From Eledone cirrhosa (taxonomy: Eukaryota): a stretch of DNA of 64,000 bases. The DNA lies in contig OZ024740.1 in the NCBI GenBank assembly GCA_964016885.1, forward strand, positions 208,320,001 through 208,384,000. The letters run 5' to 3'. The translations under genes were made by a program, and so were the position numbers. Position 1 is the first letter of the stretch; each line of letters starts with the position of its first letter. Below the pieces are notes generated by a model, which worked only from the letters and a program-made list of their open reading frames with translations, had not been told where the DNA came from and did no database searches. Positions 5,514 to 61,985 of this stretch are shown one piece after another.

Positions 5514-5680
5514 TAGGAACGAGTAAGACCCCGACGGCTGAGCACAAGCCGTTTCGACGGCTAATTCTGGACTAAAAAGTCCAGTATTAGCCGTCGGGGT
5601 CCTACTCGTTCCTATTACCCACTCTACTACCCTAAGTATTGAGTACTTTGGTGCGTTATGGTCCACCTGGTTCCTTACCA
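5514..5680. mobile_element. Two-armed mini-element of the 39358-43385 PLE family
   Basis: TAGGAACGAGTAAGACCCCGACGGCT ... AGCCGTCGGGGTCCTACTCGTTCCTA inverted arms, then a tail with TATTGAGTACT. Flanked by (AT)n. Confidence 0.8.
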
Positions 5681-5978
5681 TATATGAATATATGTATAAT
5701 ATATATATATATATATATATATATATATATATATATATATATATATATATATATATATATATATATATATATATATATATACATATATTCATATATAGGA
5801 ACGATCGACCTTCGTCAAATCGGACCGAGGAAACAATGTTTCCATTGGTCTTTCCAATTGCTAATACTCTCTATCGGTCGCAATACGAGTTTAAATGAGT
5901 TGATAATAGAACCATATATAGGCAAACATTTTAAAGTTCAATTAGATTATTCTAACAGGATATATATATATATAAATA

Positions 5979-8900
5979 CTAGCAGAAGTACCCGGCGTTG
6001 TCCGGGTGTAAGTCGACCTTTTCTCTGTTGTTAAAATGTGTGAAAGTTACTTCCCGCGCATCACAGGTGCAACGTTGTTGTTGGGGTTCACGCTGTTGTT
6101 GGTGTTGTTATTGTCTACACCAAAAGAGGTCATCATGAAATAGGAGTTGTATTTCCACATATTACGGTGGAACGTTTTAGCCGTAGTGTCGTCACCTGTA
6201 AGTAGATTCAGAAGAACGTCTGGCCGGTCAGCCAATGCCTCTAGTTGCACCTTACCTCCTGCACAACACACAGAAGGGGCCTCGCCTGGCCACTTCATTG
6301 CCTTGCAGAGTGTACAGACATTATCCATTTTGCCAATGGAAACTGTAGGCAGAAGTCCGTAATCCTCAGAGGGGTTATATCTGAAGGCTGCTTTTACCCA
6401 GACTGAGCTCTTGGCAGCAGTAGCTAATGTATGCCGGGAATGCTTAGCAGCAAGCCCGTTGTATCTGTCTGCCGTGGACTCCTCTGCAAGCGCTTGTTGA
6501 CGACGAAGGCGAACCCCAGCAAGCCTCGTCTGACAGGATGTTGGTGACTCCTCCGCCAGCGCTTGTTGGCGACGAAGGCGAACACCAGCAAGCCTCGTTG
6601 TACAGGATGCTGGTGACTCCTCCACACGCGCTTGTTGGCGACGAAGGCGAACATCAGCAAGCCTTGTCGTACGGGATGTTTGTGACTCAACCAGCCGGGA
6701 AAGACGTCTATCAGCGAGTCATGATTCGTGCTCAGCAGGTGTTTCCTAGAGAAAGTTAATGCTACTAGTTAGCTAAGCCAAAGGCACTGTGCCAATAGTA
6801 AATGAGAAAAGTGTAATATGAACAAAAGGGAATCAAGGTAAGACAATAAATTTAATATAACTACGATTAGAATGTTGTAGTTGCTTAAAAGTGGTGACAG
6901 TTAGGATAAACGCAGTGCTTGCTAACATTAAGGGAGAATATTGCATAAAGGACTAACTAATTGTGAATGAACGCATACCTGAGAACGCCAAATTCGTCGT
7001 CTCAAAGCAGTAGCTGTATCTTTTTTGGAGGTAAGTCTTGAACGTTTCTGTGTGGGCATAACGACGTGTAACGAAGCTGTTAGGTTAGAGAGGGGTGATT
7101 AAGTACAGAGAGAGGTGACACCAGATTCGCTACCATGGTTACTGGTGAATGGGAAGGTTTGGAAATATGATTATAATAACTTACCGAATTTTCCGGCCTA
7201 TAAAGTGCACTTAAAATACCAAAATTTCATCAAAAAACAGCTTTGCGCTTTATACTCCGGTGAGCCTTATGTATAAATAATACAATGGTAATCAATCACG
7301 GCTCTAACAGAAGTAATAGATCTAGACTAAAAGTAAAGAAGATAGCATTTTCCTGGTTGGCCTTACACGCCTTTGCGCGGACCTGATTTTAAATGATACG
7401 CCTTATATCCCGGTGAGACTTATAGAGCGGAAAATACGGTATGTATTGGAAAAGAATACGAATTCATGACCAAGGTGTGACAAAATTGGCGTCTATACAG
7501 TGCCTGAAACAAACTTATCCAAAACACTGGGATCTTTCTCGTTAAGTATCCACCCAAAAGGAACCGTTTCTTAGTTACAAAAAATAACCAAAGTGAATAG
7601 TAGCTATATTTCTGACATATCATGCCAAAAAGAACAATATATTCAAAAAATTTTCTAAAGTACATTCAATCTCTCTTTTTGACCGATGTCTTAATAAGTA
7701 AATTACCGATTTTTTTTTATTAGCTGTCAGTGTTTATCTGCATGCAGGTGTGTACGTGTGCGCAATCAATTGCACTGCATGCAGATGGTCTATGACAACT
7801 AATTCAAAAATTAAAGAACAATAGCATTTTGCAAATACGCTCATAACATTTAGTCGTAAACAACAAAAAATGCCATTAGAGGTGGGCTAATAATGGAAAA
7901 GACACAAACCCTGGTGAACTTACGTTTAAAAACCTGAAAACTTACTCACTTCCTGTGCAAAAGGCTGTGACAGTAGTGTTATGAATTAAGTAATTTTTTA
8001 GAACCTTTTGTTTAAAAAAGGATATAATTGGTACGGACGTTACATTTTTTACAACTTTGTATGTGTCCAATACAACTTGAAAGCATGATTATTTAAGACT
8101 GTTTGAAAATTTACTCACCGCTTTTAGCTTTTGGCATCACAAAAGACACCATTAAATTTGGTTTCCTTTCAGATAGGGATAATACTGTATTTTCACTTGA
8201 ATAAGGGGGAATATGAAAAGTTTAACGATAAGATGTCGACAATCCCCTAGTCCCAATGGGGATTTTTAAATTTAAGGAAGGCGAAAAATGAATTAAATTT
8301 AACTGAAATGGCATGCAAGTAGTTGGGAAAACATACTGCTCGTGGTATAGACAGGCCGTCCAATCAATAACGCGCGTGAGTCACAGTGTGTGCGTGATTA
8401 TATGGGCTTATGAAATTGATTTTGATTGCGCCAGGTGTAAACTAAAAGTTCTTGTGTTCGAATACATACACATTAAATTTCATTGAAATCGAAAGATTTT
8501 TGAAAAGAATATGAAAAACATTCTATCATATATTTTGTTGACTGTACAATTATTTAAGAATTAAGAATTCAACTCAAAGAATCCTGAATATCTGTTTGTA
8601 AAGCCTTCCACTTTCCCATAAAGAAAGGCGTAGATTTGCAGATTTCCACAATATTGCGCCATTGATAATTAAACTATGAATAATTGTCTGCCCCAACTCT
8701 TAAAGGTCTCATTTAACGCATGATTTATGAGTTTAAAAAAGACTTTCTGAATTTTTGCAGCCTTGGAGTAACTCCTAATGGATCTATTATTGTAGTAATA
8801 TCAAATTTCACTGAAATCGGACGAATTCTGAAAATATCGATTTTTGCCTCTGGGGTACGATTATCGATTTTTTTTAAATTTCAAATTACATACCTTCAAA

Positions 8901-61576: not shown

Positions 61577-61595
61577 CTATATATATATATATATA

Positions 61596-61985
61596 AGTAG
61601 AAGGGATATTTAATTTGTTGGAAATCCGACAAATATAAATATAAATGTTTATAATTGATTTAGAGCACTCAACTGTCTCCTGGAGTAAATATTCAATGAT
61701 ATTAAATAAATGGAAACTATGTTTAAATAAACGGTTGCTTTTCAATTATTTACATATTCATTTGCATATTCACCCATAAGTTTGAAAAATCCATAATACA
61801 TTTCCATTATGCAGGGAATATCCAACTGGTAAGGTATGATTTTCCTGGGTATGTCTCTATTTATGAAACAAACTTTGTATTTTATCTGAAGAAAGCATAC
61901 CAAAGTGTTTTGGTACCCTTGAAATATATATAATAAAATAAATATGGTTTTATAAGTATAGTTTCCATTTATTTAATATCATTGT
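61596..61985. mobile_element. Two-armed mini-element with HHR (61878-61940, +) and left tail
   Basis: Arms about 61692-61735 and 61945-61984. TATTTTAT-CTGAAGA..GAAA-TATATA-TA-ATAAAATA. The tail reads GTTGAGTGCT on the minus strand. Confidence 0.78.

Follow-up and report, generated by a model that had tools for sequence, protein, structure and literature searches.

Penelope-like elements (PLEs) encode reverse transcriptases (RTs) that are sister to TERT (Craig et al., 2021; PMC8557442). How a PLE recognises its own RNA and chooses where to start the copy has been studied in vitro for one Poseidon element, PAc of Anolis, whose purified protein cuts both strands of the DNA and extends them (Frangieh et al., 2024; PMC11167929). 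Reverse transcription of PAc starts at two adjacent internal sites of the RNA, at an AC-rich stem-loop 111-118 nt into the open reading frame (ORF), and its genomic tail is the stretch between these two starts. The motif bound by the protein has been bounded to the first 172 nt of the ORF, and hammerhead cleavage is dispensable for PAc in vitro (PMC11167929). Craig et al. (2021) describe a tail as an extension of 30-40 bp that the insertion unit carries on one end, and attribute it to endonuclease-mediated resolution. They also define the Hydra clade, whose members target (TA)n, carry a single ORF with the RT followed by a C-terminal GIY-YIG endonuclease, and have a canonical hammerhead near their 3' end; further traits are DKT in place of DKG, an RWK motif close to the N-terminus, a CxCX5C linker, the lack of CCHH, and CxxC and CxH motifs round a conserved E and N (PMC8557442). 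Here we analyze a 64-kb stretch of the Eledone cirrhosa genome (contig OZ024740.1, positions 208,320,001 to 208,384,000; hereafter the window), in which the tails of Hydra-type PLEs carry the motif RTYGAGYNCY.

Rather than standing alone as a sequence box, the motif forms the 3' strand of a small, conserved hairpin, and PLE copies have two alternative 3' ends, T1 and T2, the tail being the stretch between them. Like PAc, these elements have two alternative start or end sites in the transposon RNA with the tail between them, as well as a stem-loop, downstream of the hammerhead region, near the known or presumed point of initiation. The use of both target strands by PAc also fits the two-armed inverted insertions described below. 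Unlike PAc, which belongs to Penelope/Poseidon, the elements studied here belong to the Hydra clade. The PAc stem-loop is AC-rich, lies inside the ORF and is reported from one element with no conserved motif, whereas the hairpin described here lies upstream of the ORF, is defined by its sequence, and covaries across many families and three phyla. The tail of Craig et al. shares with ours the extension of one end only, the inverted 5'-truncated arms and the (TA)n targets (PMC8557442), but measures 30-40 bp as against 77 nt in the window and roughly 72-95 nt across families. A tail and a stem-loop at the RT start have already been described for another clade. For this hairpin, no published description was found in the literature searched, a search that did not reach subscription-only papers: the words "hairpin" and "stem-loop" are absent from the main text of PMC8557442, although the consensus files of that paper contain the structure, and the words hairpin, stem and tail are absent from a 2026 preprint that treats animal retrozymes as PLE derivatives.

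We scored the motif as the IUPAC pattern RTYGAGYNCY on both strands of the window. It has 19 matches, compared with 3.38 +/- 1.58 in dinucleotide-preserving shuffles, whose maximum was 8 (0 of 100 shuffles get to 19). All 15 sites named by a first-pass annotation of this DNA were found, at most 2 nt off; one of them, TCTGAGTGCT at 16660, falls outside the pattern. Five further matches had not been listed (9082 on the minus strand, 11438 on the plus strand, 17220 on the minus strand, and 18725 and 59764 on the plus strand). Those at 9082, with no tail context around it, and at 59764 look like chance matches unrelated to tails. The annotation had placed most sites near the element terminus, and indeed a dinucleotide microsatellite of at least five units begins 35-77 nt 3' of the motif in 13 of the 19 matches; in sense orientation it is usually (TA)n and more rarely (TG)n. 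In one of the remaining matches the microsatellite starts at 162 nt, and the other five lack a run of at least five units, two of these five preceding interrupted TA runs.

The search was extended to an 854-kb sample made up of the window (C1:208,320,001-208,384,000) and 79 ten-kb stretches taken from 15 large contigs of the 3.0-Gb assembly. It contains 124 matches, 79 with a microsatellite 15-95 nt downstream and 17 with one upstream. By BLAST of the flanks with the motif masked, the 79 fall into 23 flank clusters. Column-permuted versions of the motif (n = 200) gave on average 4.7 near-microsatellite matches in 3.1 clusters; two of them reached 23 clusters, and both are microsatellite-like patterns themselves. 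Enrichment and positional bias thus persist once families are de-replicated, and the motif is a real feature, a conserved cis element of PLE tails that reflects neither chance nor plain copy number. The proposal that it is shared by otherwise dissimilar families stands in part: the flanks of the 23 clusters are dissimilar, but the carriers appear to belong to one Hydra-type clade and the tails of families D and F are alike beyond the motif, both running on ...TCATACGG.

A second box, (T)ACTCTRC or GCTCT..., lies 8-45 nt upstream of the motif and is complementary to its GAGY, as is the base following this box to the motif's first R. An exact complementary 5-mer is present upstream in 13 of the 23 de-replicated clusters, compared with 1.2 in shuffles and 2 in a downstream control window. 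The type of box tracks the type of motif, with ACTCT facing ATYGAGT in 7 of 11 cases, ACTCC facing GTYGAGT in 4 of 9 and GCTCT facing ATYGAGC in 2 of 2. The resulting hairpin has the form 5'-RCUC-Y-(inner stem-loop of variable length and sequence)-R-U(Y/A)-GAGY-RCU-3', in which U(Y/A) is a bulge; the ten-base motif runs from the last inner pair through the bulge and the 3' side of the basal helix into the conserved 3' flank.

When 13 family representatives were aligned with MAFFT, 94.8% of cells were paired and five of the eight pairs had changed on both sides, a degree of pairing and covariation unmatched by any of 500 shuffles; controls with a slid register gave 20-60% pairing. Most unpaired cells come from one row, E2_L070, which took the wrong upstream box and was kept in these counts but dropped from the model described below. 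RNAalifold, run unprompted on the same alignment, returned this helix too, 2-nt bulge included. No variation occurs in the three central pairs (C-G, U-A, C-G); the outer position holds A-U or G-C and the first inner one U-A or C-G, while the inner stems are wholly different among families (UACU/AGUA, UAC-UUCG-GUA, UGCUC/GAGCA, CAGUU/AACUG, GGUUC/GAACC). The few G-U cells are found on the sense strand. The hairpin is predicted to form in RNA.

A covariance model (CM) of the hairpin alone, built from 12 representatives, gave 77 matches at E<=1 when run on the 854 kb. A microsatellite, mostly TA, begins 20-99 nt downstream in 71 of them, against 8.3% of random positions, and at 40-49 nt in 36. 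No match has a microsatellite within 15 nt upstream, and in none of the 77 does (TA)n run straight into the hairpin, as would be expected of full-length 5' ends or tail-only pieces. Grouped by flank, the matches form 18 clusters, with pairing in 135 of 136 cells, a figure that leans towards structure since the alignment was fitted to the model. The first bulge base is U in all 18 cluster representatives, and the three bases 3' of the helix are R in 16, C in 17 and U in 16 of them. The CM also recovers families with ATAGAGCACTC that RTYGAGYNCY misses, and itself misses wobble-pair variants such as the one at 16647-16669. The sites in the window are as follows.

43311..43343, plus strand: hairpin, family A (CM R1, 32.3 bits); paired region 43313-43336 (ACTC...GAGT), motif 43330-43339
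5619..5651, plus strand: hairpin, family A, in a T2 arm (CM, 32.9 bits); the partner T1 arm ends near 5506
13687..13719, minus strand: hairpin, family A (CM, 32.9 bits)
22753..22785, minus strand: hairpin, family A (CM, 32.1 bits)
31942..31974, plus strand: hairpin, diverged family A2, ATCGAGTACT (CM, 34.6 bits)
22610..22637, plus strand: hairpin, family B, 3' of a CTGATGA...GAAAC hammerhead core (CM, 29.7 bits)
18370..18398, plus strand: hairpin, family E, ACTCC...GTTGAGTG (CM, 33.5 bits)
61660..61688, minus strand: hairpin, relative of family E with a damaged inner stem (CM, 21.7 bits, E 0.044)
30600..30633, minus strand: hairpin, family D, inner stem TGCTC/GAGCA (CM, 32.7 bits)
11423..11451, plus strand: hairpin, family C, in a tail ending at a (TG)n run (CM, 26.1 bits)
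16647..16669, plus strand: variant hairpin with wobble pairs (ACTCG...TCTGAGT), seen by eye, no CM report at E<=1
45511..45520, plus strand, and 29241-29250, minus strand: motif in family F tails, no complementary upstream box
17220..17229, minus strand, 14310-14319 and 29131-29140, plus strand: motif in pieces of family G tails, 5' half of the hairpin missing
17424..17433, minus strand: motif in a family H tail, upstream box deleted; intact relative at L038:4710-4738
59764..59773, plus strand: chance match in the GIY-YIG coding sequence of another PLE, outside the feature

Intact copies of family G outside the window pair GCTC with GAGC. The variant hairpin at 16647..16669 lies in the tail of a PLE with an ORF fragment at 14438-15097 and a T2 end at a (TA)n run, at 16707. 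At 30528-30640, the T2 end of a family D tail abuts a family A copy that is broken in its own hairpin loop after ...CCCTCTAA, a junction that looks like one tail inserted into another. At 18725-18734 and in L046 (minus strand, near 8800), ATTGAGTTCT stands about 7 nt after (TA)n with no 5' box; the two sites are copies of one element, and either its 5' boundary could lie inside the hairpin or a different element could be reusing the box. Near positions 120-200 of the window, a further tail of the L010 type contains ...ACTCTGTAGCTTACATAGAGCACTC..., with the outer pair broken (A facing C) and no CM report at E<=1.

As far as could be judged, all carriers are (TA)n-targeting PLEs of the Hydra-clade type. 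Family A is represented in the window by, among other copies, a two-armed insertion at 39357-43384, made up of three parts.

39357..42340, minus strand: long arm, with RT and C-terminal GIY-YIG frames from 42336 to 40158 interrupted by stops
42313..43307, plus strand: 5'-truncated inverted arm of the same PLE, 93.9% identical by self-BLAST to 39357-40322 reversed
43308..43384, plus strand: tail on the short inverted arm, from T1 to T2, missing from the partner arm

Read by eye, the translation of 42336-40158 (minus strand) contains ...GGLYRDDGL... followed by ...NVIYRCNV...AYIGLS..., that is, an RT and then a GIY-YIG domain. The RT part is 49% identical to the ORF of a PLE in L072 (E 2e-73). 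The RWK and DKT motifs read KRMRWKA and SDKTKNLY in L072, and KRLRWRT (an RWR variant) and SDKTGNLY in the window copy. In the endonuclease of the latter we recognised by eye CNCPDRSTC (the CxCX5C linker), ...PCNLCSEE... (CxxC) and ...ACKH... (CxH), and inspection of the same translation revealed no CCHH pattern. Insertion into (TA)n, likewise a Hydra-clade feature, is apparent from the 71 of 77 hairpins that precede a dinucleotide microsatellite. Pfam returned no family for the Hydra-type ORFs even at E<=10.

The window also holds a GC-rich, degraded PLE of another type at 58571-59976 (plus strand), with YIDD in its RT and a GIY-YIG domain reading ...VYGLRCTEC...YVGQTGR... (Pfam GIY-YIG, E 0.027, below the cut-off). 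No hairpin is present in this remnant. After it come a C run (59987-60012) and then low-complexity frames rich in proline and threonine, which extend to 61596.

The two 3' ends flank the hairpin. T1 lies 2-10 nt before the hairpin base, at short TA-like sequences, and T2 lies 40-70 nt after the hairpin, at a distance that is fixed within a family. In the window, the long arm ends in ...CCTAT, directly followed by TA repeats (T1, 39357) with no tail, and the short arm runs 77 nt further (43308-43384), through the hairpin, to TA repeats (T2); in this tail, 5 nt precede the hairpin and 48 nt separate it from the (TA)n junction. A family A anchor sequence just upstream has 65 matches, which comprise 29 T1 ends, 25 T2 ends with a hairpin tail and 11 others. 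Both ends occur in comparable numbers in families E, B, D and E2 and in two L010-type families.

Divergent arm pairs of family A consist of one T1 and one T2 end in 19 of 19 cases. Under a stricter hairpin test, T1/T2 pairs account for 16/16 in family A, 4/5 in E, 3/4 in B and 2/3 in L010. The exceptions outside family A (3 of 12) are all T1/T1, and T2/T2 was never found. Two-armed insertions with one T1 and one T2 end include that of the window (39357-43384) and others in L061, L063, L032, L038, L046, L048, L056, L001 and elsewhere. Many two-armed units are tiny palindromes resembling fold-back elements, whose arms reach about 45 nt past the hammerhead region.

The place of the hairpin in a full-length unit can be read in L072, where a hammerhead-like region is followed by about 40 nt, the hairpin (3368-3397), 33 nt, TATA, 78 nt, a repeat of the 3' box (GTCGAGCACTCTTC) and the ATG at 3557, which places the hairpin some 160 nt 5' of this ATG. 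A truncated member of the family (L010:2651-2680) meets (TA)n exactly at the position of the internal TATA of L072; the tail thus represents the initial part of the leader behind the pseudo-LTR (long terminal repeat). A pattern search for the 5' leader of family A found the window's own copy alone. A DNA search of the genome with the family A tail, in which very common words are passed over, gave no matches and so says nothing about how rare the tail is. In L072 (3513-3526) and in the Hydra-1_Ajap consensus, a second 3' box (GTCGAGCACTCT) that has no partner upstream precedes the ATG by 20-30 nt; the 5' box could pair with it instead, or it could be another site for the protein.

Six Hydra-clade consensus sequences from File S7 of PMC8557442 were examined by eye alone, and three contain the hairpin: Hydra-2_Amil (coral) and Hydra-2_Ajap (sea cucumber) in their 3' tails, and Hydra-1_Ajap at its 5' start, from nucleotide 3 on, with the second box also preceding its ATG. 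The coral and sea-cucumber hairpins have a GCUC/GAGC base, a bulge that contains U, and ACU as their flank, and each has its own inner stem.

Three functions had been suggested for the motif by the first-pass annotation: a signal for the PLE RT/endonuclease, 3'-end formation and a promoter. RT/endonuclease recognition fits best, because the hairpin sits between both 3' ends, which are RT start sites in a Poseidon PLE (PMC11167929). A promoter fits poorly with covariation that preserves pairing, and 3'-end formation is right only in the sense of the place where synthesis of complementary DNA begins. We therefore favor, with a probability of about one half, a reading by analogy with PAc in which the hairpin at the start of the tail is an RNA element bound by the RT-endonuclease, the RT starting at one of two flanking sites. 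T1 and T2 would then be RT start sites, the Hydra-clade counterparts of the two starts of PAc, and the protein would hold the hairpin while priming from nicked (TA)n. Such docking would account for the way in which both ends closely flank the hairpin, for the fixed distance from hairpin to T2 in each family, and for the retention of the hairpin and little else among families and phyla. If the two strands were primed from opposite sides of the hairpin, the presence of one tail per unit would also be explained. As a more tentative extension, which we regard as doubtful, a dimeric RT-endonuclease might dock on the hairpin and prime T1 on one target strand and T2 on the other, leaving exactly one tailed end in each inverted two-armed insertion.

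The proposed docking has parallels outside PLEs. Stringent-type long interspersed nuclear elements (LINEs) have a 3' stem-loop that is recognised by the RT and is common to their partner short interspersed nuclear elements (SINEs), and the R2 3' untranslated region is a further parallel. The hairpin described here resembles these stem-loops as a small conserved structure near the RT start in elements that otherwise differ, which is the pattern expected of a recognition signal. The stringent-type LINEs and R2 start at the RNA 3' end past the structure and at one site, in contrast to the two flanking sites here and the internal start suggested by analogy with PAc. Telomerase RNA carries protein-binding hairpins beside the template, for example the template boundary element, and our hairpin likewise stands 5' of the place where a TERT-like RT would start copying an internal stretch of RNA. 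Unlike at telomerase boundary hairpins, copying here would read through the hairpin, and the likeness considered is one of position.

Several observations weigh against recognition of the hairpin by the RT-endonuclease. Ends pair as T1/T2 in our units, whereas PAc used both starts alike on both strands in vitro, and PAc starts without target homology, whereas the sole T2 that could be checked here lies at an internal TATA (n = 1). Our tails, at 72-95 nt, exceed the 30-40 bp of other clades. The excess of A+C that the PAc stem-loop would lead one to look for near T2 is absent (mean 0.50 over the last 20 nt of 18 tails). The hairpin is also an element of the 5' leader in full-length units, where a role in expression is possible. 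As regards the structure, 10 of the 23 motif clusters have no exact complementary box, family F has no complementary upstream box, and the shuffle controls overstate independence since clusters share ancestry. Finally, three of the six consensus sequences read from File S7 of PMC8557442 have no clear hairpin, Hydra-1_Amil and Hydra-1_Crog being partial and Hydra-1_Obim having none.

The leader position suggests one alternative, namely that the hairpin serves translation, stability, transcription start or packaging of the full-length RNA, and is found in tails merely since the RT starts downstream of it on tandem or read-through transcripts. The hairpin about 160 nt before the ATG of L072 agrees with this, as do its position from nucleotide 3 in Hydra-1_Ajap (PMC8557442) and the second 3' box before the ATG of both. 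We consider it unlikely, because in all families examined both 3' ends tightly flank the hairpin: T1 at 2-10 nt from the base indicates a role in defining the end, and the T2 distance is fixed per family, with the microsatellite at 40-49 nt in 36 of the 77 hairpin matches. It is also conceivable that the element acts at the DNA level, the tail with its near-palindromic GAGTRCTC core being a site for the GIY-YIG endonuclease that serves insertion beside existing copies and resolution of intermediates. The Penelope endonuclease of D. virilis required the tail for recognition and cleavage of Penelope-containing plasmids, as cited in PMC11167929, the CTC/GAG core and RCT flank are nearly invariant, and in families A, D and H GAGTACTC reads as a perfect palindrome. 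The two bases at the centre of the palindrome vary, however (TA, TG, CA, CC, TT, TC), and insertions are found in (TA)n and not beside the motif, no hairpin of the 77 having a microsatellite within 15 nt upstream. A DNA site would also leave unexplained the compensatory pairing of boxes 8-40 nt apart, the variable inner stems and the restriction of G-U cells to the sense strand; it fits the covariation poorly, and we hold it to be distinctly unlikely. The same covariation argues against a slowly decaying remnant without function, common by descent to related tails. All carriers apparently belong to one PLE clade and several families are alike beyond the motif (for example D and F, as above), which is what descent alone would give; yet the flanks have diverged past BLAST detection while the helix was kept through changes on both sides, and the hairpin has been retained in this genome, in the coral and in the sea cucumber with different inner stems (PMC8557442). 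We regard the absence of function as very improbable.

A last alternative draws on the hammerhead-like sequences that accompany these elements. In family A of the window, the hammerhead-like region (43175-43290) has a helix I and, by eye, a 3' half at 43260..43287 (plus strand) composed of GAAAC, a helix III with a palindromic GAGCTC loop, and GTC, with a predicted cleavage site after 43287, 20 nt before T1. Its 5' core reads CTTGACAA where CUGANGA is expected, a non-canonical sequence that suggests that this ribozyme may be inactive. Hammerhead cores are legible by eye in family B and at 16530-16600, and CTGANGA...GAAA is found at most 160 nt upstream of 19 of the 77 hairpins. In short copies, the sequence between two GCCGTC repeats (5590-5610) is often missing. 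The hairpin could then be an accessory of the ribozyme, a decoy or partner of helix III that aids folding, dimerisation or RNA circularisation. Its closing pairs, A-CUC and GAG-U, lie in the same 150 nt as those of the Hydra-clade helix III and A-CUC...GAG-U-A resembles the ACUC-N-GAGU-A of the latter; it stands 25-60 nt downstream of the predicted cleavage site; helix III of Hydra-2_Amil and Hydra-1/2_Ajap reads ACTCGGAGTA and ACTCCGAGT in the consensus files of PMC8557442; the helix III loop of family A, TTGAGCTCT, is like TTGAGTACTCT of its tail; and the PAc ribozyme is protein-assisted (PMC11167929).

Unlike helix III, however, the hairpin has no CUGANGA or GAA core boxes beside it and often has a G after GAGU, which is barred at the hammerhead cleavage site, and in family B the helix III loop is unlike the tail motif. 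Rfam gave no matches to the whole window at gathering scores and no hammerhead among the best 150 of 254 matches at E<=10, these 150 being microsatellite and inverted-repeat look-alikes of microRNA (miRNA) families. When the stretch 22480-22900 was scanned alone, two hammerhead families appeared far below threshold (RAGATH-1 hammerhead, 17.6 bits, E 2.1; Hammerhead_HH9, 12.3 bits, E 6). In none of these searches (gathering scores, the best 150 of 254 matches at E<=10, the scan of 22480-22900) did a match cover the motif. A role as accessory of the ribozyme is in our view improbable. The motif itself as hammerhead core or cleavage site was rejected, since no CUGANGA or GAAA boxes adjoin it and G follows GAGU (in 7 of the 18 cluster representatives, at a position where the hammerhead needs a non-G base). 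A splice donor was rejected by eye, as there is no consistent GT.

Docking of a dimeric RT-endonuclease that primes from opposite sides of the hairpin would, if true, make the hairpin the first cis element of Penelope-like retrotransposition to be both sequence-defined and clade-wide, with conservation from cnidarians and echinoderms to this animal, and a handle on how a telomerase-related RT chooses an internal template start. The 25-45-nt hairpin, with its invariant CUC/GAG, U bulge and RCU flank, is a concrete and mutable candidate signal in a second clade. In addition, the CM marks Hydra-clade tails and helps set element boundaries in microsatellite-rich genomes, and the rule of one tail per unit constrains models for the origin of the two PLE arms.

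Other repeats of the window include a non-LTR retrotransposon remnant at 1105-4983 (minus strand; Pfam RVT_1, E 3e-20, with a weak zf-RVT), which is partly duplicated at 729-3755 and related to 48157-48802. A long near-perfect inverted repeat with a 41-bp stem at 37331-38183 (core 37680-37825) gives rise to the top "miRNA" matches of Rfam at E<=10 and is probably a fold-back insertion, not a miRNA. Satellite arrays lie at 33759-36454, 26392-26940, 55763-56618, 62599-63378 and 50039-50613; their units include a 32-nt C/A-rich repeat (x84), a 101-nt repeat (x4.7, 99% matches between copies) and (GATAATAATAA)n (x78), in addition to an array with self-alignments offset by about 71 nt and an array with a 48-nt unit.

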